Assembly: GCA_024672315.1 (NCBI GenBank)
Contig: GCA_024672315.1_4714.1
DNA length: 64,000 nt
Strand: one strand, 5' to 3'
Source of the DNA: a phage
This document shows positions 33,263 through 46,372 of the stretch, in pieces. Positions within the stretch are counted from its first letter, which is position 1. Every line of letters begins with the position of its first letter. The notes under the pieces were generated by a model. The model was not told the origin of the DNA. It searched no databases and saw only the letters and a program-made list of their open reading frames with translations. Made by a program: the position numbers and the translations under genes.

Positions 33263-35875
33263 TTAAGCGTCCGGCGTAAAATCAAAAGGAATGTCCGTAC
33301 GAATGATATCATAACGTTTTCCGAGGAAATAAAACTCTTCGGGAACCTGGCCTGGAATGATGCTATCACCGATGAACTGCGGATACGCCCAGATGTACTG
33401 AGTGAGTCCTTCGAACATATCCAGGTTATTTGCGTGGTTACCCATGATACGTTTCCAGAGTTCGCGTTTATACGGCGTTTTAACATCGAACCCATAAAGC
33501 GGTGCAAGATCTTCACCAGGAACAAATCCCAGGTAATAGTGGATCTGACTAACCGGGAAACCAAGCGTATCTCGCGGAATGGTGATCGCTTGCTCAGCCT
33601 TGGTGACATGCGTCTCAATAATCCAGTCATAGCACTCCGAATAGAACCGATCGAATTTCTCTGGATTATACCATGCTTTGGGAAGATTGAGTTTCTCCGT
33701 GAACGCATTCGACATGATCGTCGGTAAGAACGGAAGAATACCGGTTTTGATCTGCGTGTATTTCGATTTTACCCGGTTAACGAGATTCCAGCAACTGTAT
33801 CCTAATTGGTCGTTACAAAACTCAACGTAGAGATCGTAGTCACCGCCGGATAATGGGTTGTTGATGTCACCGATGTCTGCGGCATATTTGTTGGGATATC
33901 GGTTATTGAAAGCCAGTTTGGTTTGGTAATCGTAGATACACGGTTTGTTGTTCGCTGTATTGATCCACCACCAAGGTTCACCTACCTGCACACAAATGTC
34001 CTGGACATGAGGGTAGATGATATCAGCAAATGCGGTTAACACATCCCCTAACCACGCCATCGCCTGTTGGTTACACGGAGACAACAACCAAGACGGTGGC
34101 GTATATCCGGTTGCTGCGATGTTTCCTTCCCAATCCTGCTGCGCCCATTCGAACGGGCATGCGGTACTCATCAATTCGTAACTTAAACTGATAGTGACAG
34201 AGAAATGGTGTTTTGCAGCATATGCAGCGAAAGCTTCATGCCACGCGATACAGGGCGGATTTAATACATCCGTGGTGTTCACCAGTAACTTACCCGCACT
34301 TGGTGTCCAGACAGTATCGTAGAAATGCGACATGCCAACATAATGCACTAATTCATCCTGATATCCCGCATAAACCAGGTTCTCAAATACACGCTCCGGC
34401 GTGATGTTGTAATGGTCATCATAAGCGGTTATCGCACGAAGTTCGTGTGGCGTACAGTGGTGGCGATTAACCGTCATTTCCTGATACACCCCATCGATAG
34501 GAAGAATCTCGATGGTTAAGCCGAGGTCGATCGGTGTTTCCAGATAGGTCGTTTCAGTCGCATCTTCCTTATAATGTCGAGAACTCATGCTGAACATCAA
34601 CGACGTTACCGATTCGAGTTCGATAGGTTCGTCAGCATAGAACCCCGCCATTGCGTCGTTGAAATCGATCGTTACGATTGCGCTTCTACCGTCTTCAGAG
34701 ACATCTGTCGCATATCGGGTTAATGAGATATACTGACGGCTATCGTCTTTGTGTACAACGGTTAAAACCGGCGGGTGTTCGGTATCTGCAAAGTTACGCT
34801 GATCGCCAGTAAACGTGATCTTCGCTTTAAAGATCAAACCAAGCAACGACGTCATGGGATCATACGCAATACAGCCGTGATCCAGCGTATCCGTTGTCCG
34901 CCATTCTATCCCGACCAACCCGTTAGCGGTATGGCATCGCATATACGCATTAAGTACCATGTCTTCACTGACAACCGCGAAGTTCTCTGTTGACTGACCG
35001 TTGATAATCCAATACATCGGCTGCCAGAGGTTACGCGTACCTTTTGCGTAGCGGTAGGTTGGTGCGCCTTTAGGGTTGCCGTTATTGAGATGGAATACGG
35101 CAGTACCTTGATAATGGTCGTTCGTATTAATCGGAACACTGTAAGCATCACCGAGGTCCGTACGTTCCACCTTCGTGATTGTTGCGTTTTCAAATAACCT
35201 ACGTAGCGCGGGTAAACCGATATCTTCAGGCGCGTTTTCTCGACGAATCGCATCCGCGATGCGGTGGGCTAAGGCGGGGTAAATGACTTCACCCTGTTGT
35301 AGGTTTGCAAGACCTACAAAGCGATCGGGGCCGATACCAGCAATCAATAACTCGACACCACCCTTCGTTCTATCGTCGTTAAGATATTTCAGTCCGGTAA
35401 GGTCAAGATGCTGAATAAGCGACAACAGGTTGTAATTACGGTTCTCAACAGTTAGTACAAGATCGCCCGCCCAAACCAAACTTCCCTCATCCGCTGTTAC
35501 TTTAACGGATTGTCGGCCTGTTGTAGACGTTGTTGTCGTTTTATTTAATTGTCCTTGTAGGAAGTCGGTTGCGAGGTCAAAGGCAATACCGTAACGGTCA
35601 GCGACCGCTTGCATGATTTCACGTAACTGGGTATCTTCTTCAATGATAATCTTGACAGGTATTCCCAAGAACGCTTTAGCAAGGTCTCGTTTAACCAACG
35701 AGACGAATACGGATTTGTAGTATCGGCTTCCATCTTTCCCTTTAAAAAGAATGGAGGTTGTTTCGGGTGCCGATAGAACACGTGCAAATACAACATCGTC
35801 GGAAGTAAGAGAAAGTCCGTTTTTCTCGTTGACCAATCTTAGTATTTCATTTTGCGCGGTTTCATGTAACTTCAT
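33263..35875 (-). CDS. putative receptor-binding / tail-associated protein (870 aa) with shared N-terminal module
   Basis: N-terminal ~100 aa (..VFVSLVKRDLAKAFLGIPVKIIIEE..YGIAFDLATDF) is paralogous to the N-termini of 41064..41591 and 45408..46238; sits in the tail-fibre cluster. Confidence 0.6.
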   Translation of the reverse strand: MKLHETAQNEILRLVNEKNGLSLTSDDVVFARVLSAPETTSILFKGKDGSRYYKSVFVSLVKRDLAKAFLGIPVKIIIEEDTQLREIMQAVADRYGIAFDLATDFLQGQLNKTTTTSTTGRQSVKVTADEGSLVWAGDLVLTVENRNYNLLSLIQHLDLTGLKYLNDDRTKGGVELLIAGIGPDRFVGLANLQQGEVIYPALAHRIADAIRRENAPEDIGLPALRRLFENATITKVERTDLGDAYSVPINTNDHYQGTAVFHLNNGNPKGAPTYRYAKGTRNLWQPMYWIINGQSTENFAVVSEDMVLNAYMRCHTANGLVGIEWRTTDTLDHGCIAYDPMTSLLGLIFKAKITFTGDQRNFADTEHPPVLTVVHKDDSRQYISLTRYATDVSEDGRSAIVTIDFNDAMAGFYADEPIELESVTSLMFSMSSRHYKEDATETTYLETPIDLGLTIEILPIDGVYQEMTVNRHHCTPHELRAITAYDDHYNITPERVFENLVYAGYQDELVHYVGMSHFYDTVWTPSAGKLLVNTTDVLNPPCIAWHEAFAAYAAKHHFSVTISLSYELMSTACPFEWAQQDWEGNIAATGYTPPSWLLSPCNQQAMAWLGDVLTAFADIIYPHVQDICVQVGEPWWWINTANNKPCIYDYQTKLAFNNRYPNKYAADIGDINNPLSGGDYDLYVEFCNDQLGYSCWNLVNRVKSKYTQIKTGILPFLPTIMSNAFTEKLNLPKAWYNPEKFDRFYSECYDWIIETHVTKAEQAITIPRDTLGFPVSQIHYYLGFVPGEDLAPLYGFDVKTPYKRELWKRIMGNHANNLDMFEGLTQYIWAYPQFIGDSIIPGQVPEEFYFLGKRYDIIRTDIPFDFTPDA

Positions 35876-35897
35876 TAAAAACCTCAGCCCTTTAGAA

Positions 35898-36539
35898 TTA
35901 GATGTACTGCTTACCGCCCACGAAGGAAGTTAACCAGTTCCCGCTGACGAGTTGTGATACCCAGCCTGGAACGGCTCTACCATTCTGGCTCATGATGTTA
36001 CCACACCAACCAGGGAATCCGGGACGGATGTAATAGAAAGTTAAATTGTAGAGATGACAGTTCCATACCGCAACGTTATGTTTACCAGAAACCGCTTTAA
36101 AGACAAACGCGACAGGTAAAGGAGACGATAACAATTCGGTCACAGGGACGGCTGACCAGTTCGCATTCGCGTTCCACGGCTGCCAGGTATGACTACGCGA
36201 GTCGCAATATACGTTACCGTTGTTACCGCGCCCACCCGCATGCCACCACAGCGACGGACTCATGTTCTTAAGTGAGGTAAATTGTTGCGGTGGAATATTA
36301 GGAATAATAACAGGGTTGGTACCTTGTCCATGTTTCTTTTCTTTTGCGTTCACATACCCGCTTATCGATTCGAGGTATTTGGTACCAGGATAATTGTTCT
36401 GGACTTGTGTCGCAATATCACGAACGTCGAACGTCCAGCAGATCATGGTGTTATAGTAAGCGTCGGTGTTATCGTGCCATGAGTTACCATCTTGTAAACG
36501 TGCGCCGCTATTCGGTGTTTTATCTGTACTTATAGCCAT
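35898..36539 (-). CDS. hypothetical protein
   Basis: 213-aa ORF, Trp/Asn/Gly-rich; AGGA RBS. Confidence 0.7.
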   Translation of the reverse strand: MAISTDKTPNSGARLQDGNSWHDNTDAYYNTMICWTFDVRDIATQVQNNYPGTKYLESISGYVNAKEKKHGQGTNPVIIPNIPPQQFTSLKNMSPSLWWHAGGRGNNGNVYCDSRSHTWQPWNANANWSAVPVTELLSSPLPVAFVFKAVSGKHNVAVWNCHLYNLTFYYIRPGFPGWCGNIMSQNGRAVPGWVSQLVSGNWLTSFVGGKQYI

Positions 36540-36671
36540 GGTCTTGTCCTATACGTTGGTGGTTGAGGTGACGGATATCGGATGCGTGCTGGACGTGAAC
36601 CCTATAGTTCACGCTATCGCCATTTTCTACCTCGTTTCTATTCTCAAAAAGGAAATTTCATACGATGACGC

Positions 36672-36712
36672 CATAGCAGCTCCTCCTTCCCTGACGGGTT
36701 GGAGGAGCATAC
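36672..36712. promoter_or_regulatory. conserved GC-rich intergenic stem-loop, family copy 4
   Basis: catagca GCTCCTCC ttccctgacgggtt GGAGGAGC atac; loop identical to the reverse complement of copy 1's loop; between lipoprotein gene and 35898..36539. Confidence 0.8.
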
Positions 36713-36716
36713 TTAA

Positions 36717-37223
36717 TTACTTACTGATAACCTCAACGGAGTTGGGATCAGCGATCAATGCACGGTCGGTAGAACAATTGAAGAAGACCATCCCAACACC
36801 ATCGCCGTTCGAGTTCAGGGTTGAACTTGCGTAAGACAATGTTGGTTTGTTCATGCGGTAGAAGCGTTCGCTGGTTGCGGTATTGAACCCCAGGTCAACG
36901 TAGTCTTTCACCGTGGTATACAACTGGGTGGACTCGAAAACGGTTACCGGAGAGTCAACGGTAAACTGACTGCCTTCATCCACAACCAGAACTTTATCGT
37001 TCCAGATTTCAGTGGTTGAGAACTTCGGTTTCCAATGTTCGAATTCCTGGGTTGCGCCCCAGCAAGAATACACAGCGAGATTGCTGTTCTTCTCAACAGG
37101 TTTCAAACCCACCAGTTGCGTCAGGTCTTTATCCAGGTTCGGTAAACCTTCCAGCGTAGCACACCCACCCAGAGAAAGCACCATCAACATACCAAGAACG
37201 ATCGCGCAAAGTTTCTTCATCAT
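36717..37223 (-). CDS. putative lipoprotein
   Basis: 168 aa; N-terminus MMKKLCAIVLGMLMVLSLGGCATLEG = basic n-region, hydrophobic h-region and lipobox-like LGGC; AAGGAA RBS; immediately downstream of the tail-fibre gene. Confidence 0.7.
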   Translation of the reverse strand: MMKKLCAIVLGMLMVLSLGGCATLEGLPNLDKDLTQLVGLKPVEKNSNLAVYSCWGATQEFEHWKPKFSTTEIWNDKVLVVDEGSQFTVDSPVTVFESTQLYTTVKDYVDLGFNTATSERFYRMNKPTLSYASSTLNSNGDGVGMVFFNCSTDRALIADPNSVEVISK

Positions 37224-37277
37224 CGGATTTCCTTATGTGTTAACGGAAGTGATTTCCATAAGAATAATCGTCCGATG

Positions 37278-40200
37278 TTAATATCCCTGGTTTGTAGCTC
37301 CTGCTGTACCTGCGAACTTCAGCCATTGCCCTTCCGGCGACAATGCGCTCCGATAATGATACACTACAATCATATTTGTCAAACCGCTATAATCTGCTTT
37401 ATGTTGCGTAGTAATACGTATCGTATAATCCAACCCGTTAGGGAAGTTGAATACTTCAATGATCGTACCGGCGAGCTGGAGAGCACCGAACCCGGTGATT
37501 GTTCCTGTGCTTCCGGCGTTCATGCCCATCGCATCGCCGAATCCAATCCAGTAGCGTTTCCGAAACGCACCTTCGCTTTTCAGATAGTTGATGAAGTCAC
37601 TAAACGACATGTTCATACCACCAGATGAAAGCGTGGATGTTTTAATCGCCATGTTAGGGATATCGCTACTGGATGCTTTATATCCTAATTTCGTATCGAT
37701 TTCTGACTTCGTATACGTAGACAGATCCGCCGCAGTTAACGTGATATTCGCCGAACCATCGAACGCTTTCCCGTTGATCGTACGCGCAGTCCGCAACTTC
37801 GTTGCCGTTGCTGCGTTTCCTGAAGTATTCTGATTACCAGCGGTGTTGACACCTGGTAGGTTAATATTAGCGCTGCCGTCAAAAGACACTCCGCCTATTG
37901 TCCGGGCCGTCTTTAACTTGGTCGCTGTCGCCGCATTTCCTGTGGTATCTTGGTTACCTGTGGTATTAACACCAGGTAAGTTGATGTTTGCTGTACCGTT
38001 GAATGATACCCCACCTATCGTTCTTGCCGTTTGAAGCCTTGTCGCTGAAGCGGCATTACCCGTCGTGTTTTGGTTACCTGTTGCATTCACACCCGGGATA
38101 CTATCCTTAGATGTGTAAATCTGTGCCCATTCCGACCATTTCGCATCGGTTGTATCGCGACGTGAACGTAAATAAGCTGGAGCGTGCGCGCCCGAGGTAC
38201 CCGACCATCCAATGAGGATTTCACCTTCACCAACCGATGAAGCACCTTTAAGATGAACAATGTTACCGTAGGCTGTAGGGTATCCGTTATTGTACACTTC
38301 ATACATCTGAATACCCGTATTGCTGCCCTGGGTCGCATTAGCTAAAGCGGTGACCCGTCCCTTGGAAGCGAGCACGTTAATGCTAAAGCTAATATCAGTT
38401 GTACCGTCAAAGGCGACCCCATTAATCCTCCGCGCCGTTTGGAGTTTCGTGGCAGTAGCCGCATTACCAGAGGTACTCTGATTACCCGCTTTGTTCACAC
38501 CCGGTAAATCAATGTTGGCGGTCCCATCAAAGGACACACCCCCTATGGTTCTCGCCGTCCGAAGTTTTGTTGCTGAACCAGCGTTTCCGGAAGTGCTTTG
38601 ATTCCCCGACGCGTTGACACCCGGTAGGTTAATGCTCGCAGAACCATCAAAAGAAACTCCGCCGATCGTGATCGGTGTTTGCAGCTTCGTGGCTGTCGCA
38701 GCATTACCCGTCGTATTCTGATTGCCAACCGCATTAACGCCTGGTAATGCGATATCGGCCGTACCATCGAACGCAACACCACCGATTTTACGGGCGGTCT
38801 GTAGCTTGGTCGCTGTCGCCGCGTTGCCGCTGGTATTTTGCGTGCCCGCTTCATTTACGCCTGGTAAATCAATGTTCGCAGTACCGTCAAAAGAAACACC
38901 CCCGATGGTTCTCGCGGTCTGCAACTTCGTTGCACTTCCTGCGTTTCCGCTGGTGCTTTGATTTCCCGCTGCATTAACACCTGGTAGACTGATGCTGGCT
39001 GAACCATCGAAACTCACACCACCGATCGTAACAGCGGTTTTCAATTTCGTGGCGGTTGCTGCGTTACCGGTTGTATTTTGGTTGCCTGTCGCATTCACGC
39101 CAGGTAATGCAATATCCGCTGTTCCGTCAAAGGCAACGCCACCGATTTTACGTGCAGTTTGTAGCTTGGTTGCACTAGCAGCGTTACCGCTGGTATTCTG
39201 GGTGCCCGCTTTGTTAACACCGGGGAGATCGATGTTAGCAGAACCATCGAAGCTGACGCCACCTATCGTTCTTGCGGTAGCGAGTTTAGCTGCTGTGGCT
39301 GCATTATTACCCACTTTCAGCCAATCATCCCATGGACCATCCTGGCCGTTCCATGATGCCGTTAAACTACGTACGTAAATATTGCCGGTACGTACAGTGT
39401 AACGTTGCGTTCCACCGAATTGCCCGGTTGGGAGCACTTCAATGTAACCTGCGGCGTTTGCTTCAGGGAAATTGTGGGCGATGTCCGCGTTCGTTGTTAC
39501 TGGTTTAGACCAAATACCCACAGACGCTTCGACTGGGCCGAAGGTATTCAGATTTGCGTCTATCGCCATAGCGCCATTAAATTTCAGGTATGTCTCTGAC
39601 GATAACCCGATCGTTTTAGCAAACGCAGCTTTATCTACGATATCACTACCGTTATTCCCTGCTTGCAACGCCGTCTTAGCTGCCTTTATGGTTTCGGTCA
39701 ATCCAAGATACTGTAAGATCGCATCAACGCTTCCTTTGTTTAGCAGATTCAGACCTGTTGACGTTACGTTAGTTAGTCCGATTTGGTTCCGTCCAGTAAA
39801 ATAAGGGAGTTTATTCGCTTCTGTTGTTAGGTTAGACCACGCAGTCAACAACGCGTTCAAAGGCTGTTTACCCGCCAACGCATTGGTTACTGTCGTTGCG
39901 AAATTAGGATCGTTCCCTAAAGCTTGAGCCAGCTCATTAAGCGTATTTAGCGCTTCTGGAGACGAGTCGATCAGCGATGCGATAGCGCGCATCACAAATT
40001 CCGTGTTGGCAATCTGTCGACTGCTATCGTTCTCTGCAGCCGTAGGCGCTGCCGGGATACCGGTGAACACGGGGCTATTAAGATCTGCCTTGAGCGCGAT
40101 GAGACGTTTAAGTGCGTCGACATCGACTTTCAGGTTTTCCCACCCGATGAGAGAACCACCACTGCTGGCATGATAACGGTTATACCAGAAGTCACCGTTA

Positions 40201-41057
40201 ATGCCTAAAAAGAATATTCCCTTCTCTTCGTTTTGTGGGCCAGAACTGTTCCGTGACGAGCTGATGTAATTGATTTCAATAAGACCGGTAAACGTCACTC
40301 CTGGAATTATTTTATTGTCTCCAGCTGACTGTGATACCTGGTAAATCCCCGGGGTTGCGGCTTTAACCCATGTTAAGAATTCTGTTACTCCAGCGGTGCC
40401 GCTAAAATTCTTAACGTCGGTAAGTATTGCCCCATAACCGAACATACCGGGTAGAGCCACTCGTCCGCTGGTACGATCACGAATATCTGTTGCAACAACA
40501 GGCAATTGTTTACGAACGGCATTAACCGCTTTAGGTGTAGCCGATTTTGTCTCGTCGTCGCTATCGGTTGCATTACTTAGAATAGTTAAACCGCGCGTAG
40601 CAGTCGTTGCATCAGGAAGAAATGCGTTATCCAACACCTTAAGCTGTACTGCACTCGTATTACTAACAACGACATGCACTTGACAGTTAAGAACGCTGGT
40701 TGCGCCTTCGGCAGGCGTAGGCTTATATCTTTCTGGTGCACTGCAGACGGCAATCAGAACACCTTGGTCATCATACAGACCGATCTCACGTACCCAGAAC
40801 CCACCTTGACCAGCAGGAATAATACCCTCAACGATAATCCTGGTTGTGCTGTCACCATCCGCATGGATATTAGAAACTTCCCCACGATAAACTTCGTGAA
40901 CAAGCGCTGTTTGGCTGGCGGTCGGAGTTGGGATCGAGCCGTTACCATCACCAACGGCAAAGTGTGTGATTTTTAGTTTCTCACCGTCGGGAAGTAACGC
41001 GGCGGTGATACGTTCTGCTCCTTTATCGGTAACTACCGTTATATATGCTGTACTCAT
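37278..41057 (-). CDS. tail fibre protein
   Basis: 1259 aa; N-terminus (..FAVGDGNGSIP..ALVHEVYRG..GGFWVREIGLYDDQGVLIAV..YKPTPAEG..ATPKAVNAV) matches the conserved N-terminal domain of P2 gpH-type tail fibres (from memory); about ten tandem 40-aa repeats of type ATKLQTARTIGGVSFDGSANIDLPGVN..GNQNTSGNA. Confidence 0.9.
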   Translation of the reverse strand: MSTAYITVVTDKGAERITAALLPDGEKLKITHFAVGDGNGSIPTPTASQTALVHEVYRGEVSNIHADGDSTTRIIVEGIIPAGQGGFWVREIGLYDDQGVLIAVCSAPERYKPTPAEGATSVLNCQVHVVVSNTSAVQLKVLDNAFLPDATTATRGLTILSNATDSDDETKSATPKAVNAVRKQLPVVATDIRDRTSGRVALPGMFGYGAILTDVKNFSGTAGVTEFLTWVKAATPGIYQVSQSAGDNKIIPGVTFTGLIEINYISSSRNSSGPQNEEKGIFFLGINGDFWYNRYHASSGGSLIGWENLKVDVDALKRLIALKADLNSPVFTGIPAAPTAAENDSSRQIANTEFVMRAIASLIDSSPEALNTLNELAQALGNDPNFATTVTNALAGKQPLNALLTAWSNLTTEANKLPYFTGRNQIGLTNVTSTGLNLLNKGSVDAILQYLGLTETIKAAKTALQAGNNGSDIVDKAAFAKTIGLSSETYLKFNGAMAIDANLNTFGPVEASVGIWSKPVTTNADIAHNFPEANAAGYIEVLPTGQFGGTQRYTVRTGNIYVRSLTASWNGQDGPWDDWLKVGNNAATAAKLATARTIGGVSFDGSANIDLPGVNKAGTQNTSGNAASATKLQTARKIGGVAFDGTADIALPGVNATGNQNTTGNAATATKLKTAVTIGGVSFDGSASISLPGVNAAGNQSTSGNAGSATKLQTARTIGGVSFDGTANIDLPGVNEAGTQNTSGNAATATKLQTARKIGGVAFDGTADIALPGVNAVGNQNTTGNAATATKLQTPITIGGVSFDGSASINLPGVNASGNQSTSGNAGSATKLRTARTIGGVSFDGTANIDLPGVNKAGNQSTSGNAATATKLQTARRINGVAFDGTTDISFSINVLASKGRVTALANATQGSNTGIQMYEVYNNGYPTAYGNIVHLKGASSVGEGEILIGWSGTSGAHAPAYLRSRRDTTDAKWSEWAQIYTSKDSIPGVNATGNQNTTGNAASATRLQTARTIGGVSFNGTANINLPGVNTTGNQDTTGNAATATKLKTARTIGGVSFDGSANINLPGVNTAGNQNTSGNAATATKLRTARTINGKAFDGSANITLTAADLSTYTKSEIDTKLGYKASSSDIPNMAIKTSTLSSGGMNMSFSDFINYLKSEGAFRKRYWIGFGDAMGMNAGSTGTITGFGALQLAGTIIEVFNFPNGLDYTIRITTQHKADYSGLTNMIVVYHYRSALSPEGQWLKFAGTAGATNQGY
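37740..39300 (-). repeat. in-frame tandem repeats (~120 bp / 40 aa, about 10 copies in two blocks) inside the tail-fibre gene
   Basis: Repeating peptide ATKLQTARTIGGVSFDGSANIDLPGVNxxGNQNTSGNA; DNA periodicity visible (same motif recurs 120 nt apart, e.g. near 38404, 38524, 38644, 38764, 38884); blocks of ~7.5 and ~2.5 copies separated by a ~285-bp non-repeat insert (~38100..38380). Confidence 0.85.
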
Positions 41058-41063
41058 GTTGTT

Positions 41064-41591
41064 TTATCCTGGATAAATAGTGATGATATCACCAATGACG
41101 GTTGTGGCACCGGCGTAAAGATGAGCCGGAGATACATCGTGTTGGTTTGTCACAGTAAGATCCAATCGACCACGCCAAACCATGGAGGTATTCGCGATGG
41201 GGATAGAAATCTTTTTGGATATATCGTCACGAAAATCAATAACAGTGGCAAGGGTAACTGCATCAAAATCAACGTCGGGATCAAAGACGAACCCGTATTG
41301 ATCTGAAATCGCCCGAATAATCGCATGTATAGTTGTTGTCTCAACGGACTCTAAAACGATTTTTACCGGTATTCCTAAAAATGCCTTCGCGATATCGCGT
41401 CGAGCGTAAACGATAAAACTTTCACCGCACCACTTTGTTCCTTCATTTGCTGTGACGATCACTTTTGCCCTGTTAGCACCAGAACTCCCATCCAAGGTTA
41501 ATGTAAGATCGGAGCTGCTGAACACGCTACCGTTACGTTGGTTTATCAACGTAATCAGTTCGTCTTTCCATGGCGGGTAAAGTGAACGCAT
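41064..41591 (-). CDS. hypothetical protein with the shared N-terminal module (short paralog)
   Basis: 175 aa; ..FIVYARRDIAKAFLGIPVKIVLE..YGFVFDPDVDFD aligns with the N-terminus of 33263..35875. Confidence 0.7.
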   Translation of the reverse strand: MRSLYPPWKDELITLINQRNGSVFSSSDLTLTLDGSSGANRAKVIVTANEGTKWCGESFIVYARRDIAKAFLGIPVKIVLESVETTTIHAIIRAISDQYGFVFDPDVDFDAVTLATVIDFRDDISKKISIPIANTSMVWRGRLDLTVTNQHDVSPAHLYAGATTVIGDIITIYPG

Positions 41592-41697
41592 AAGCGCAAC
41601 CCTCCTCCAACAGTCAAATTAAATTGTAAAACTCCTCGAGATCAGAGTGCGATTCGAGGTAAACGTAAACAGTCCAGACGACCGCATAAAATTCCGC

Positions 41698-41755
41698 GCA
41701 TATTGCCCCTCTATCTCGCTTTGTCGAGATAGAGGGGAGGATAATACGATTATGC
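41698..41755. promoter_or_regulatory. GC-rich intergenic stem-loop (related family)
   Basis: gcatattg CCCCTCTATCTCG ctttgt CGAGATAGAGGGG aggataatacgattatgc; perfect 13-bp stem; a second perfect hairpin (ATGGGGCGG taa CCGCCCCAT, ~41774..41794) sits directly after the stop of 41798..45394. Confidence 0.8.
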
Positions 41756-41797
41756 TGCCGCACTCCAAAGTTCATGGGGCGGTAACCGCCCCATCGG

Positions 41798-44700
41798 TTA
41801 AATGGTTGGTTTTACATCACGTAATAAGGCAATATAATAGCCTAATCCTCGGAGGATCTCCCCACTCCAGAAACCAAAATACATTCCGTCTCTGCCGAGA
41901 TTAGCGCTATCTGGTGCAGGACTCCACCCACCATTCATTACGTCGTCAACAGTGTAATGGTTGATGTAGTTCTCAACGATTTCGTTATAAGCATTAACCG
42001 CAACAGAATAGCCTTTATCGTTGGGATGTCCGTACAACATTGCTAACGACGCACCCGCCAACCATAATCCCGCCATGTGACCAGTAAAGTCATTAGGGAT
42101 AAAAGCAGGGGGTTTATCCATCGGAAAATCCGTAGGGGATTGATAAGCGTTTTCCTGTTGATACGTAAACAAGAAATCGATCCAATGACTGATGTAAGTG
42201 GTTAATTTCTCAGGGACAGCCAAACCATGATCAAGCAGTCCAGCATAAAGCCTCACCGCTGAGAAGAAAGCCCTCGGCTGATAACCGGACCATGCCGTCT
42301 GATCGCCGAAGTGGTACATCGTAAAATCGTTAACTTTTGATCCGCTTGGCGCATCCCAACGATCCCACACGTACGCACTTGCCCCTGGCCCTAAAACCCC
42401 GAATTTCTGATAATACCACTGTTGTGAGTCATACCAGAAATTCACAACGTTCTGAATCATGAGGTCACGTCGTTCAGTCGGTACTTCCATATCCAGGAAG
42501 ACCCATGGATGTTGGTAGCCGGGATAAGGCTGACCACGCCAACTGTCGAACGTCGGTGCGTTAGGGATATAGTTGTTCGAGAACGGAATAATACCAGGAG
42601 TATAAGGCAGTGGGTCAAGACGTTGGTTGACAATCGTGCAATCGCCAACACGTAATGTTCCCTCTGCCTCAAAGGTTGCTTTTAACGTAAACAACATGGT
42701 ATATCCGTCATCCGTGGTGTAAGTTGACGGTGGATTGTTGATGGCGTAAAGCTTAAATACCCCTTCAGCGATATCGCTGTCGTCAGGCAAGAACAGAATT
42801 TCAGTTGAGCCATCGCCCCACACAGGTGCAGAAGGTTTAGGGTCAGTATCAGCGTGGCCCGGTTGATACCCTGAAAGCGTCCATCCGTTCACCGAAAGCG
42901 TCAACGTATTTCTTGCCGTGGTGGCCGGTAGCATATACCACCATCGCCAACCATTTGCATCTTCTACACGAACGTTGTAGTCAATCGACGCGAAATAACT
43001 GACCTGTCTTACGATCTGTTTTGCTGTTGGATTGAATTCAAATTGCCCGCCTGCTGCAGTAAGCTGCGCTTTTAGGAACAACCCATCCCAGGAATCTTCC
43101 ACCGCTTCGCTGAATTCTGTTGTGATGGCGACATCATCTTTCCAGCCGACTTTATCAGCCGATATCAACACAGAACCTGTAACAACATCACCGGTTGGTG
43201 TTGAAGCTTCATCAACCGCATCGGCAGGAATCAACGAGCCTATTTTGAAATCCCATTCTTTCGGTTCAGCGCTGGAAGGTAGTACCAGTTTGTACGTTTT
43301 GGCGTTCGCTTCGGTTTTGTCCAAAGAAAGCGATAATGAGATCTCAACCGGAATTGCAACACCTGCTGTATCTTTACCTCCGCAGGTTACACGAAGAATT
43401 GAATCACGATTGACGCGGAACGGAATGGCCTGCTGCTCAAGGTAAATTTGTGCTGAAGATGCTTGAATCACGATCCAGCCATCGGTATCACGCGTGATTG
43501 TAAACGGTGCTTTCGATGGGTATGTATACGTGTAAGCGATACCGTCGGTGTCGTAACGATCGGTTCCTTTTACCTGACGGAAGAACTTATCATTGGCGTC
43601 GATACGGGTATATTCTTCAATCGTAAACAACGATGCCTTGTACGCTTTCTGATAACGCTCCTGCTGCGTTAAACGGTATAAGGTGTAGGCTGCTTCACAA
43701 AACCACTGTTCAGCGTCTGACGCGTTTCCCATGTAGTCTCTGGTGACCGGCACCTGGATCGGTCGGTTATGCTGACATTCGTTCGTTTTGATAAGGTATC
43801 CGCCATATTCAACAGGAACACGGGGTGCCCATGCAACCAAGTAAGAACCGTTGACGGATTTATCTTTGAGTACGATAGTACCTACTTCATCGTCAGTACA
43901 CGCTTCAAGATCGTCTCCGTCAGCACTTACGTAACGTTTTGTGCGTAACGCAACTTTCTCGATAGGGAACACCGTACCCTTTGTATCCCAGTCAATTGTC
44001 CCATCATCATTGGTTTTGAACACATCCGCGTTCAAATTCTGCCAGCCGAGTTTACCCTCATAGACCTGAACAACAAGATCCATGTATTCCCCGAACGTTG
44101 GCGCACCGTGTGTTATTTTTCCGATACCGTTGGTGAATGTAACCGCTGTGTCATGGAAACCGCCATGTGTTGGGTAATCGTCTTTTGCAAGAGGATAATG
44201 GGCCAACACAGGTTGTTTACCATTAACAATCCAGTTAGCGATCCAGCGTGCTGGTGTATCCGGTGGTTCAAGGCCTGCATAGAACGCATTTATATACGCA
44301 TCGAACGATGCCTCCGCTAATGTGAGATAATGCGCTTTAAGCTTGGTATCATCCGTTGTATGACTGAATATACCCGCACCCAGAATTAACAACGACTGTC
44401 CTTCTGTTGTTGCGTCACCGTCCGGTTGTGCTTCTTGTCGTGTTGCTGCAATGAAATGACGGTTGTTTACCATGACTCCGCTTTCATTTAACACGTAATG
44501 ATCGGTTTCTGGATCGGTAAACGTTCCTGTGTTTCGGGTTAAGAATCTTGCATGACCATAACCAACGAAATTAACCGGCGACGCCGTAAGCACCCATTTA
44601 CCGATAAGTTGAGCGACGTCATTATAACGCTCCGATGCGGTGATTTGTTTCACGTACCAATCTTTACGGTTAAATGTCCAGAGCAGGAAGTAATAGGTTG

Positions 44701-45394
44701 TATTGATTTCCATCACTGGGAACGTCGGCGTTAACGGCTCCAGCGTTAAGTAGTTGCTCCAATCAATCTGTCCACCAACCACCGATGGGGTAATCTCTAA
44801 TAACTGACACCATTCATAACGGTTCGGTACACTACCGGACGTTGTTGGTAAAGGTAACTTGTATACGCCAGTACGATTCAGATCGAACGCTTTTCTAGCC
44901 GATCCTAAATCAACATAAATACTCGATGATGCGCTTGCATCAGATGCCTCCAAAGCACCTAGCGTTGACCGATACATTGAGATGAACAACGTATCTTTCC
45001 AGTAAGGGTTATCCTCGGTTGGTTCTAAAGCGATTTGTGCGGAGATGCTGTTCCATGTCCCTAACTGGTATGCTGCATTTAAAGATTCTTCCGTGAAATA
45101 ACTTTCCGCAATCGCCAGATGGAACTGTTCATTCAATAACGCGAGTGCACTGCGACCGGTAACATCCTCGTTACCGGTTTCTTTTTTCATGATCGCGCCG
45201 AACGGAAACAGTGTCGCGAATGACCGTTTTGGTTTATTAACCGTAACCGTCCCCGTGTATTTTCCAACACCATCAAGTTTTTGACTATCGCCAACAGCAG
45301 TGACTGCGATACCATCAACCGGGATATCTGTTTTATTTAGTATATTGAGTTGGTCAACCAGATCCTGCTTATCGTCAGGTAAGAATGTCGCCAT
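41798..45394 (-). CDS. large tail-associated protein (1198 aa), possible tail spike/fibre
   Basis: Long ORF in the tail-fibre cluster with AAGGTGGAG RBS; Trp/Tyr/Gly-rich C-terminal part; no motif recognised, call rests on position. Confidence 0.55.
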   Translation of the reverse strand: MATFLPDDKQDLVDQLNILNKTDIPVDGIAVTAVGDSQKLDGVGKYTGTVTVNKPKRSFATLFPFGAIMKKETGNEDVTGRSALALLNEQFHLAIAESYFTEESLNAAYQLGTWNSISAQIALEPTEDNPYWKDTLFISMYRSTLGALEASDASASSSIYVDLGSARKAFDLNRTGVYKLPLPTTSGSVPNRYEWCQLLEITPSVVGGQIDWSNYLTLEPLTPTFPVMEINTTYYFLLWTFNRKDWYVKQITASERYNDVAQLIGKWVLTASPVNFVGYGHARFLTRNTGTFTDPETDHYVLNESGVMVNNRHFIAATRQEAQPDGDATTEGQSLLILGAGIFSHTTDDTKLKAHYLTLAEASFDAYINAFYAGLEPPDTPARWIANWIVNGKQPVLAHYPLAKDDYPTHGGFHDTAVTFTNGIGKITHGAPTFGEYMDLVVQVYEGKLGWQNLNADVFKTNDDGTIDWDTKGTVFPIEKVALRTKRYVSADGDDLEACTDDEVGTIVLKDKSVNGSYLVAWAPRVPVEYGGYLIKTNECQHNRPIQVPVTRDYMGNASDAEQWFCEAAYTLYRLTQQERYQKAYKASLFTIEEYTRIDANDKFFRQVKGTDRYDTDGIAYTYTYPSKAPFTITRDTDGWIVIQASSAQIYLEQQAIPFRVNRDSILRVTCGGKDTAGVAIPVEISLSLSLDKTEANAKTYKLVLPSSAEPKEWDFKIGSLIPADAVDEASTPTGDVVTGSVLISADKVGWKDDVAITTEFSEAVEDSWDGLFLKAQLTAAGGQFEFNPTAKQIVRQVSYFASIDYNVRVEDANGWRWWYMLPATTARNTLTLSVNGWTLSGYQPGHADTDPKPSAPVWGDGSTEILFLPDDSDIAEGVFKLYAINNPPSTYTTDDGYTMLFTLKATFEAEGTLRVGDCTIVNQRLDPLPYTPGIIPFSNNYIPNAPTFDSWRGQPYPGYQHPWVFLDMEVPTERRDLMIQNVVNFWYDSQQWYYQKFGVLGPGASAYVWDRWDAPSGSKVNDFTMYHFGDQTAWSGYQPRAFFSAVRLYAGLLDHGLAVPEKLTTYISHWIDFLFTYQQENAYQSPTDFPMDKPPAFIPNDFTGHMAGLWLAGASLAMLYGHPNDKGYSVAVNAYNEIVENYINHYTVDDVMNGGWSPAPDSANLGRDGMYFGFWSGEILRGLGYYIALLRDVKPTI

Positions 45395-45407
45395 TATTTA
45401 CTCCACC

Positions 45408-46238
45408 TTAATCGTAACTAAAATAAAGTTTGCTGCTGACGCCGCTATCGGAATGAGGTTTTAACACCAGAACAGAGCTTCCGAACGACGGAAGTATTGG
45501 AACATTTAAATCGTTTGCGTCGGCAACTTTTCCATTATAAACGACACTGGCTGTTGTGATGAGTTCCCAAGCCGAGGCATAACTCATTGAAATCAGCGAT
45601 GAGGCTAAACGGAATGCGTTGTATCCTTCGGGAGTATCTCCAACCGACATCGAACGTATCGCATCTTGCGGCGGTAAATTTAGCTTGATGCCGTATGTAC
45701 TGAATGTGTGGAAATCCCCTTGTTTACTATCTTCTGGATAATACGAGGTTAGTGGTTCTCGTACCGTAAACAGTTCGCTAATATCGGCACTTACATCTTT
45801 TCGTGCGAGGAATTGAAACGTACCGTACCACGATGCTGACGCGTCAGAAAGAACGGGAACAGATATGGTTTTCTCGCCGCTTTCAAATTTAACCTGTGAC
45901 GCTAACGCTGAAGAATCAAAGATCGTTAAATCGATCTTCAACCCATACTTCTTAAACAGCTGCGTTAAGCAGTCTGCTGTCGTCGTCTTATCAGCAACGA
46001 CAATAAAAGGTTGGTGTTTGATAAAGAGCTTATTAATATCGCGACGTTGAAGATAAACCTGTACGGGGTCTTCGACGTAGTAAACCGATTGTGGTGTGGG
46101 GGCTATAGAAAGGCGTAACCGACCTGATGCACCATACCAGGCTGGCGTTAACGTAATGTCTGACAGAGACAGCGGATGCTGGAGATAAGCGTTTATTTTA
46201 GATAACGCTTCTTCCTGCCACGATGCTTCAGGATACAT
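45408..46238 (-). CDS. hypothetical protein with the shared N-terminal module
   Basis: 276 aa; ..VQVYLQRRDINKLFIKHQPFIVV..YGLKIDLTIFD resembles the N-terminal module of 33263..35875 and 41064..41591. Confidence 0.7.
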   Translation of the reverse strand: MYPEASWQEEALSKINAYLQHPLSLSDITLTPAWYGASGRLRLSIAPTPQSVYYVEDPVQVYLQRRDINKLFIKHQPFIVVADKTTTADCLTQLFKKYGLKIDLTIFDSSALASQVKFESGEKTISVPVLSDASASWYGTFQFLARKDVSADISELFTVREPLTSYYPEDSKQGDFHTFSTYGIKLNLPPQDAIRSMSVGDTPEGYNAFRLASSLISMSYASAWELITTASVVYNGKVADANDLNVPILPSFGSSVLVLKPHSDSGVSSKLYFSYD

Positions 46239-46296: not shown

Positions 46297-46351
46297 CAAA
46301 AAAAAACGAAAAATAGGAAAACGGTGTTCATCCCTAAAAAGGATGAACACC
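46297..46351 (-). terminator. rho-independent terminator candidate
   Basis: Perfect 11-bp hairpin GGTGTTCATCC ctaaaaa GGATGAACACC followed on the minus strand by GTTTTCCTATTTTTCGTTTTTTTTT; directly downstream of 46373..46948. Confidence 0.75.
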
Positions 46352-46372
46352 GTGTACCGTTATATCGAACGA

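Follow-up and report, generated by a model that had tools for sequence, protein, structure and literature searches.

The locus between positions 33263 and 46238 of the 64,000-nucleotide stretch of phage DNA that we analysed (hereafter the window; contig GCA_024672315.1_4714.1) raises the question of what a phage gains from neighbouring proteins that begin alike and end differently. The first-pass annotation had read three such proteins, of 870, 175 and 276 aa, as a conserved anchor domain that attaches interchangeable distal domains to the virion in a modular host-range system. All three ORFs are present at the positions it gave, on the minus strand, as are all other features described below. 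Over the whole region, the window shares 94% nucleotide identity with Escherichia phage Goslar, and its source is a Goslar-like E. coli jumbo phage, that is, a myovirus of the Goslar type, whose sheath is contractile. The 870-aa protein is the orthologue of Goslar gp86, the 175-aa protein of gp91, an intervening 1198-aa protein of gp92, and the 276-aa protein of gp93, with 91-100% identity per segment and the same order, domains and genomic place. Four members of the chimallivirus DUF7941 family (PF25613) are encoded at the locus, and their common domain probably serves to string proteins that bind or cut sugars onto the baseplate. A 2026 preprint on Goslar (bioRxiv 10.64898/2026.04.21.720040) names gp86, gp91, gp92 and gp93 as DUF7941 proteins present in virions, counts ten such proteins in that phage (gp22, 23, 31, 33, 34, 86, 91, 92, 93 and 161), and suggests that they join head to tail into filaments attached to the baseplate periphery. 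The shared-module observation is real, is in part re-interpreted here, and was known already for Goslar; the window contributes a second isolate and comparative detail rather than a discovery, the idea having been published earlier for Goslar.

The N-terminal module is common to the 870-, 175- and 276-aa proteins, as had been claimed. All three exceed the PF25613 gathering cut-off of 27 bits (143, 57.9 and 37.2 bits, respectively), and BLASTP links the 870- and 175-aa proteins (E = 2e-22, 31% identity, 143 aa), the 175- and 276-aa proteins (E = 3e-10, 30% identity, 148 aa), and the 870- and 276-aa proteins (E = 0.002, 46 aa). The globular part in common is ~150 aa rather than the ~100 aa first estimated, and the Pfam match of the 870-aa protein reaches residue 277. 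When the window's 469 six-frame ORF segments were all searched with an HMM built from 165 family domains, the four proteins stood out at E = 6e-73, 1.6e-69, 7.9e-57 and 3.6e-6, and the runner-up segment reached 0.1. The motif RRDIAKAFLGIPVKI is maintained by protein-level selection, because its coding DNA is identical at only 29 of 42 positions between the 870- and 175-aa genes, a divergence that rules out recent gene conversion behind the identical motif.

The family-HMM score of 3.6e-6 belongs to the 1198-aa protein and falls in register at its N-terminus (residues 5-136, 44987..45382). This protein, initially taken for an interleaved non-member, very probably carries a diverged N-terminal copy of the domain. 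Its PF25613 score lies under the cut-off (16.2 bits, E = 0.0074), and hhalign, run with the single N-terminal sequence against an alignment of seven, fell short of significance (E = 0.1). The helix and strand order of its N-terminal AF2 model matches that of the 276-aa protein, and in two relatives (P0049 and P0050) a Pfam-positive DUF7941 domain is joined to a distal module of the 1198-aa type.

Only the 870-aa and 1198-aa proteins among the window's four have distal domains. In the 870-aa protein, a full DUF7941 module (residues 2-277, 35045..35872), of which residues 151-300 alone score 39.6 bits on PF25613 profile positions 160-275, is followed by a distal part (33263..35023) that comprises an NCTSP_N domain (residues 285-442; PF23844, 40.9 bits) and an NCTSP TIM barrel (residues 476-837; PF23845, 286 bits). 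Against the PDB, this part matched gp64 (9lc0_M, E = 3.5e-30) and gp65 (9lc0_I, E = 1.6e-7) of coliphage N4, and it is homologous to the gp64/gp65 receptor-binding sheath of that phage (the N4 receptor-binding protein; PDB 9lc0, 9yf4), in which the same two domains occur. Whereas N4 is a podovirus whose gp64 and gp65 wrap the tail tube, the window's domains hang from a DUF7941 module in a contractile-tailed jumbo phage. The gp65 match is limited to the region around residues 56-441, and gp65 D9-D10, which gate the N4 tail plug, were not matched by the 870-aa protein. The N4-type non-contractile sheath and plug-gating role does not apply, and the resemblance is confined to the receptor-binding domains.

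In the 1198-aa protein, the distal part (residues 272-1198, 41798..44581) is predicted to consist of β-sandwich domains and an (α/α)6 barrel. In the models, the β-sandwiches resemble carbohydrate-binding modules, and the barrel resembles glycoside hydrolases (GH8, GH105, GH76 and GH88-like), whose (α/α)6 fold it has at 8-14% sequence identity.

Distal domains behind the module are thus present in the 870-aa protein but not in the 175- and 276-aa proteins, which are the module alone. The 175-aa protein (41064..41591; Pfam match at residues 7-150; 99% identity to Goslar gp91) is a short form in which the N-terminal domain is followed by a linker as a short tail, while the 276-aa protein (45408..46238; 94-97% identity to gp93) is a full-length DUF7941 protein; neither has a separate distal domain. 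In the latter, an N-terminal domain at residues 5-149 (nt 45792-46226), modelled by AF2 with a pLDDT of 80-90, precedes a low-confidence linker at residues 150-222 (pLDDT < 50) and a small C-terminal part. The C-terminal half is not recognisable on its own as DUF7941 by Pfam, and with a profile of the C-terminal part, made from the members of 256-330 aa, no link emerged between the C-terminal parts of the 870- and 276-aa proteins (E = 0.18), so we do not claim a sub-domain common to the two.

Of 150 members of the family, 145 have the domain at the N-terminus; by length, members fall into three classes (137-213, 256-330 and 340-1537 aa). Its fusion partners are DUF285/LRR, GP38 adhesin, ConA-like lectin, β-propeller and N4-sheath TIM-barrel domains; payloads in the 64 long members comprise DUF285 (13), GP38 (2), Laminin_G_3 (2), β-propeller (2), LRR_5 (1) and the NCTSP TIM barrel (1). 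At least two matched stretches occur in 13 family proteins, mostly as two or three tandem units, each an N-terminal domain with its linker. Divergence within the family exceeds what BLAST can follow: tblastn with the 175-aa protein against 50,697 phage records matched Goslar alone; a phmmer search of PDB sequences with this single protein gave chance-level matches only, and a search of NCBIfam gave nothing useful. Reaching the PDB match required the family profile, which identified PHIKZ127 in the 9xqd baseplate (E = 5.4e-28). Foldseek with the AF2 N-terminal domain of the 276-aa protein, the one protein searched in this way, found the same chain (9xqd_0, phiKZ gp127; E = 3e-6, probability 1.00, target-normalised TM 0.56) as the sole PDB match at E <= 0.001.

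This match places the domain on a virion. The phiKZ baseplate model has gp127 at the outer tip of every spoke, where the gp139 band of each star lobe terminates in a single gp127 (PDB 9xqd; PMC13250141). It lies with gp126 in the outer peripheral baseplate, belongs to the same family by profile and has the same N-terminal fold, and for no other member has a position been seen by experiment; it differs from the window's proteins in having ~21% identity and no payload domain. In Goslar, the orthologues were found in purified virions (Table S4, bioRxiv 10.64898/2026.04.21.720040), in line with the virion location first proposed, at median copies per virion of 4.5 (gp86), 4.9 (gp92), 4.8 (gp93) and 1.2 (gp91, barely detected with 2 peptides). 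That preparation also held nucleus fragments, PhuZ and host proteins, so these low-copy detections could reflect co-purification; the four proteins would then work inside infected cells or on released debris, perhaps as free depolymerases, and not on the virion. The lack of assignable DUF7941 density in the Goslar cryo-EM map (same preprint) fits this explanation, yet we regard it as very improbable: the genes sit in a late tail-gene block adjoining the tail fibre gene, the proteins are homologous to a phiKZ protein seen in a virion structure, and their abundant paralogues gp22 and gp23 rank among the top Goslar virion proteins.

A virion location leaves two ways for the proteins to be attached. 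Each DUF7941 protein might dock independently on the baseplate in six copies and form no chain, like the N-terminal adaptor domains of other phages' tailspikes. The ~5 copies of gp86, gp92 and gp93 per virion fit six-fold sites, and the N-terminal domain of phiKZ gp127 is seen docked on the baseplate protein gp139. Against such independent docking, there is one gp127 site per phiKZ star lobe, yet Goslar has ten DUF7941 proteins that total > 2500 copies per virion; gp22 forms filaments in vitro by negative-stain EM, with AlphaFold predicting head-to-tail dimers (bioRxiv 10.64898/2026.04.21.720040); the fit of gp126-gp127 into phiKZ density is published support for chaining; and members with two or three tandem units in one polypeptide are what a self-chaining unit would lead one to expect. 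Independent docking is thus rather unlikely in our estimate, and the evidence favours a self-binding head-to-tail unit that makes chains or filaments. The anchor role first proposed for a host-range system stands as regards attachment to the virion, which agrees with the Goslar virion data, the phiKZ spoke position and the N-terminal placement of the domain across the family, but not as a plain one-to-one anchor, since the published evidence points to self-chaining.

We consider it somewhat probable that the four proteins form a family of docking units, chained head to tail at the baseplate corners, that carry glycan-directed payloads. Starting from the homology, domain content, fold matches, presence of the Goslar orthologues in virions and baseplate position of phiKZ gp127, we infer that the window's four proteins form chains, that they follow an order within them, and that they bind or cleave sugars. 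The ~150-aa N-terminal domain would be the docking unit at the outer spoke end, as phiKZ gp127 is on the last gp139 dimer, and would also receive a second DUF7941 protein by its linker and C-terminal part; because it would bind both the spoke and other DUF7941 proteins, assembly would proceed head to tail into chains hanging from the six baseplate corners. The 870-aa protein would bring a receptor-binding TIM-barrel module like that of N4 gp64/gp65, and the 1198-aa protein carbohydrate-binding β-sandwiches and a glycosidase-like (α/α)6 barrel; at about six copies per Goslar virion, gp86 and gp92 would amount to roughly one each per chain. These payload proteins would be expected to bind or cut surface polysaccharide, letting the tail fibre and baseplate reach the outer membrane, while the 276- and 175-aa proteins would serve as payload-free connector or spacer units.

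Alternatively, the 175- and 276-aa proteins could be decaying duplicates or assembly helpers rather than functional virion parts, so that only the 870- and 1198-aa proteins matter. Their genes are the least conserved among relatives (60-65% identity) and are lost or truncated in some (L004, L009), and the gp91 orthologue reaches only ~1 copy per virion. We think this improbable, however, given that intact copies of both ORFs, with the family motifs conserved, occur not only in the window but also in Goslar and many metagenomic relatives, and that the copy number of gp93 equals that of gp86 and gp92.

Variation among relatives does not follow the pattern of a conserved anchor with a variable tip. 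In close relatives this pattern is reversed: DUF7941 parts are 57-86% identical while distal domains are mostly 92-96% identical, the exception being the NCTSP_N segment of gp86 (75%), and the DUF7941 parts thus diverge faster than the distal domains. Variation arises by gain and loss of whole genes, with one to four DUF7941 genes at the locus in relatives. One relative has a chimeric gene in which the first 63 residues are of the DUF7941-DUF285 type and the rest of the gp91 type, with the crossover at the conserved RRDIAKAF motif. From the variable gene number and this chimera, we tentatively raise the possibility, itself doubtful, that the DUF7941 N-terminal coding segment, especially the invariant RRDIAKAF, acts as a built-in recombination joint for adding, deleting or re-heading receptor-binding genes. 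The gap between the 1198-aa and 175-aa genes (41592..41797) is occupied in relatives (loci L003 and L004) by an extra 584-aa DUF7941-DUF285 gene, of which no remnant or deletion scar was found in the window. A bacterial chromosome also carries a captured fragment of the locus, flanked by the cellulose and PGA operons, which hints at domestication of the glycanase.

The block holds other genes as well. A P1 S-like tail fibre with ~13 repeats (37278..41057; Pfam Phage_tail_fib and Phage_fiber_2; Goslar gp90 orthologue) has a tip (nt 37278-37888) unlike that of Goslar, with a similarity break at 37260-37888 and 69% identity to the tail fibre of phage Cyrano; the window isolate differs from Goslar in this tip and in a fibre without a separate assembly chaperone. 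A 168-aa protein (36717..37223; Goslar gp88 orthologue) starts with a lipoprotein-like signal sequence, MMKKLCAIVLGMLMVLSLGGC, and a 213-aa protein (35898..36539), assigned by orthology to Goslar gp87, gave no match in family searches; relatives hold a second, 255-aa paralogue of it. Their Goslar counterparts are present at an estimated ~737 (gp88) and at ~19 (gp87) copies per virion (bioRxiv 10.64898/2026.04.21.720040). Just upstream of the 276-aa gene, a 15-bp stem-loop with a T-rich tail behind it (46321..46353) probably delimits the transcription unit on its upstream side. The search for sigma-70 promoter-like sites gave 18, against a mean of 27 in shuffled sequence; such a deficit is to be expected where a phage brings its own RNA polymerases.

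The arrangement has partial parallels elsewhere. The phiKZ fibre base proteins gp131, gp133, gp134 and gp135 (PMC13250141) are also chimallivirus paralogues with a common N-terminal attachment segment and differing C-termini, but they use another domain, a six-helix bundle, at fixed stoichiometry, and no relation to DUF7941 was detected.

The branched tailspike systems of CBA120/Vi01-like and G7C-like phages and the adaptor-tailspike pairs of SP6/K1-5 likewise place several enzymatically different receptor-binding proteins on one virion via conserved N-terminal modules; these are trimeric β-helix proteins with defined branching and are not self-chaining, and our searches found no similarity to them by sequence or fold. 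Chimalliviruses are candidates for phage therapy because their genome replicates inside a phage nucleus, out of reach of host defences that target DNA, and how they find their hosts is poorly known. If the chain reading is true, a self-chaining domain with exchangeable heads that bind or cut sugars would account for long-range host capture of a new kind and would offer a handle for re-targeting chimalliviruses.

The region at 33263-46238 is 94.2% identical in DNA sequence to Escherichia phage vB_EcoM_Goslar, a nucleus-forming jumbo phage of 237 kb, and agrees with it in gene order; a 15-bp hairpin carrying a T-rich tail (46321-46353) immediately precedes the block. The three ORFs reported in the first-pass annotation to share an N-terminal module were located exactly where claimed, on the minus strand, and correspond to Goslar gp86 (870 aa, 33263-35875), gp91 (175 aa, 41064-41591) and gp93 (276 aa, 45408-46238). 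Their N-terminal similarity was significant in BLASTP (870- versus 175-aa protein, E = 2e-22 over 143 aa; 175- versus 276-aa protein, E = 3e-10 over 148 aa; 870- versus 276-aa protein, E = 0.002), and all three scored above the Pfam curated cut-off for PF25613 (DUF7941). Their PHROGs families (1037 and 2935) are annotated as 'virion structural protein'. Since the coding DNA of the near-identical motif RRD(I/L)AKAFLGIPVKI matches at only 29/42 positions, this motif has been kept at the protein level rather than copied recently.

The shared module is longer than the ~100 aa first proposed, with a globular common part of ~150 aa: for the 276-aa protein, AF2 gave a pLDDT of 80-90 at residues 5-149 and <50 at residues 150-222. 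The Pfam DUF7941 match in the 870-aa protein reaches residue 277, and its residues 151-300 by themselves scored 39.6 bits against the second half of the profile. The 175-aa protein ends after the first half (profile positions 7-154), while in the 276-aa protein the second half of the chain lies inside the Pfam alignment yet lacked significance when scored alone.

The 1198-aa protein (41798-45394, minus strand; gp92 orthologue) had been regarded as an interleaved non-member, but it probably begins with a diverged DUF7941 copy. A family HMM built from 165 domains of an exhaustive HMMER search was scored on each of the window's 469 ORF segments; it recovered the 870-, 175- and 276-aa proteins at E = 6e-73 to 8e-57 and residues 5-136 of the 1198-aa protein at E = 3.6e-6, with the next segment at only 0.1 and no further DUF7941 copies among the segments scored. 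Although the Pfam score was sub-threshold (16.2 bits), membership is supported because helices and strands in the AF2 model of this N-terminus follow one another as in the 276-aa protein, with low confidence thereafter at 145-270, and because in two relatives from other jumbo-phage contigs (P0049 and P0050) a Pfam-positive DUF7941 domain is fused to the same distal module (48% identity). The first-pass observation is thus confirmed, and a fourth gene probably shares the module.

Two of these proteins carry distal payloads. In the 870-aa protein these are the domains NCTSP_N (residues 285-442) and TIM-barrel_NCTSP (476-837), and the protein matched gp64 (E = 3.5e-30) and gp65 (E = 1.6e-7) of the solved N4 tails. 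Together gp64 and gp65 make up the N4 non-contractile sheath, gp65 being the receptor-binding protein of N4. Residues 272-1198 of the 1198-aa protein were predicted with high confidence, and the model contains CBM11-like β-sandwiches and an (α/α)6 barrel. This ~920-aa module also recurs widely as a stand-alone 'tail protein', its N-terminal head varying among the many phages and prophages that carry it. The payloads may bind or cleave sugars.

Searching 1.84 billion proteins exhaustively with HMMER returned 256 DUF7941 representatives at E <= 0.001. Among the matches listed, the domain begins in the first 40 residues in 145/150 members, and lengths form three classes (137-213, 256-330 and 340-1537 aa). 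Pfam payloads in 64 long members comprised DUF285 (13), T-even adhesin GP38 (2), ConA-like lectin domain (2), β-propeller (2), LRR_5 (1) and N4-type TIM barrel (1), all of which are typical receptor-binding payloads. A profile of 83 family sequences matched PDB chain 9xqd_0 (PHIKZ127) over the whole domain (E = 5.4e-28), and the same chain was the only significant PDB fold match to the 276-aa AF2 model (E = 3e-6).

DUF7941 is a known family, here in a near-identical phage, and the finding is already known. An April 2026 bioRxiv preprint reporting the Goslar virion cryo-EM structure and proteomics (10.64898/2026.04.21.720040) names ten DUF7941 proteins, including gp86, gp91, gp92 and gp93, states that chimalliviruses alone have the domain, and describes carbohydrate-binding, glycoside-hydrolase or LRR domains on gp86, gp92 and gp161. 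Its text and Figure S17 legend give the phiKZ outer-baseplate entry as 9QXD and twice write 'DUF4391'; our searches matched entry 9xqd, and the domain concerned is DUF7941. Rather than being absent from virions, which would have refuted the first-pass reading, the Goslar orthologues are present at median copies of 4.5 (gp86), 4.9 (gp92), 4.8 (gp93) and 1.2 (gp91) per virion, compared with 43 for the tail fibre gp90, 577 for gp22 and 2144 for gp23 (Table S4, 10.64898/2026.04.21.720040). That such low-copy detections reflect co-purifying material, or that the 175- and 276-aa proteins are decaying duplicates or assembly helpers, seems improbable even when these options are taken jointly.

In phiKZ, the gp139 band of each of six star lobes carries one gp127 at its outer end (PMC13250141). 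The four DUF7941 proteins could simply be anchored at six such sites without forming a chain, which we consider rather unlikely, if less so than the preceding options. Purified gp22 forms filaments, head-to-tail dimers are predicted, with one protomer's linker and C-terminal part docked on the following protomer's N-terminal domain, and the preprint envisages a 'fibre cloud' attached to the peripheral baseplate (10.64898/2026.04.21.720040). Thirteen family proteins have two or more matched stretches, mostly 2-3 tandem units of N-terminal domain plus linker; these fit a chain model, since it predicts such units in series. Tandem or multi-match members include P0195, P0201, P0268, P0262, P0246, P0267 and P0230, the last with six partial matches confined to the first 60-70 profile positions. 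On balance we favor the chain model, with some reservation. The N-terminal domain would dock on the terminal dimer of a baseplate spoke or on the linker of the preceding DUF7941 protein; payload-free members would serve as connectors, and payload-bearing members, about one per chain, would engage surface polysaccharide. Homology, folds, the occurrence of the orthologues in virions and the site of phiKZ gp127 are established; the four window proteins may form chains of this kind.

Other components of the locus also differ between isolates. At the 3' end of the tail-fibre gene (37278-41057, minus strand; gp90 orthologue), the tip (37260-37888, with 37224-37277) is unlike that of Goslar, which has its own tip type and a separate tail-fibre assembly gene (gp89); no assembly gene was found at the window's fibre 3' end (37224-37277). 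The window tip is shorter, 69% identical to the Escherichia phage Cyrano fibre and ~40% to P1/P7 Sv, and in Cyrano, too, a holin gene comes directly after the fibre gene. A third tip type, which includes a Peptidase_S74 chaperone domain, occurs in two related loci, L003 and L009. The tip is likely a host-range difference between isolates. A 213-aa Trp/Gly/Asn-rich protein (35898-36539, minus strand) is the orthologue of gp87, present at ~19 copies per Goslar virion; family searches with it gave no match, relatives carry a second paralogue (255 aa, 37% identity), and proteins of this type may be a further tail-fibre-associated component. The 168-aa gp88 orthologue (36717-37223, minus strand) starts with a lipoprotein-like signal sequence (MMKKLCAIVLGMLMVLSLGGC). 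At ~737 copies, Goslar gp88 is among the most abundant 'virion' proteins (10.64898/2026.04.21.720040), which is unexpected because an exported lipoprotein should be absent from cytoplasm-assembled particles. Co-purification on membrane vesicles could explain this, or the protein could, by analogy, be a receptor-masking lipoprotein. T5 Llp is such a lipoprotein, its gene likewise adjoining a receptor-binding gene.

Relatives differ in gene content. In L003, the orthologues of gp92 and gp91 are separated by an extra gene for a 584-aa DUF7941-DUF285 protein, and the second gp87 paralogue is present as well. The exact place of this extra gene in relatives is, in the window, a 206-nt gap after the 1198-aa gene (41592-41797) with two strong stem-loops, GGGGCGGTTACCGCCCC and CCCCTCTATCTCG...CGAGATAGAGGGG. 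A deletion in L004 (6635-8054), either natural or assembly-derived, fuses the first 214 residues of gp93 to the C-terminal 255 of gp92, eliminating the glycosidase-like protein and leaving the remaining locus intact. Between gp94 and the tail fibre, the L009 contig has a single DUF7941 gene (176 aa) and no gp93, gp92 or DUF285 gene. That single gene encodes P0040 (L009 5426-5956), which is chimeric: over residues 1-63 it shows 85-93% identity to the DUF285 protein and 9-37% to gp91, over residues 64-176 it shows 78-88% identity to gp91, and the crossover falls at the conserved YVRRDIAKAF motif. A chimallivirus receptor-binding locus fragment also lies inside a bacterial chromosome (L007 9563-15405; Scandinavium sp. 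H11S7 contig JALIGE010000076.1), as an island bounded by IS elements, with the bcs (cellulose) and pga (PGA) operons on either side and a GC content of 0.44 versus 0.54-0.55 in its flanks. Its genes encode a truncated, 142-aa homologue of gp93 (42% identical), a 1512-aa homologue of gp92 whose N-terminal domain is DUF7941 (E = 2.7e-9) and a DUF7941 protein of 289 aa.

The idea of an unchanging anchor that bears a drifting tip was not borne out: between the window and L003, conservation is lower in the DUF7941 parts than in most of the payload. Identity is 76% for the N-terminal domain of gp92 and 93-96% for its distal part, 60% for gp93 and 65% for gp91. The exception is the NCTSP_N segment of gp86 (75%), which falls below that protein's own DUF7941 parts (86-90%). 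The earlier picture, in which the proteins of a host-recognition module share a domain for virion attachment, stands in spirit, although three of its details were wrong. Taken together, the comparisons indicate that variation in this locus proceeds by gain, loss and re-heading of whole genes.
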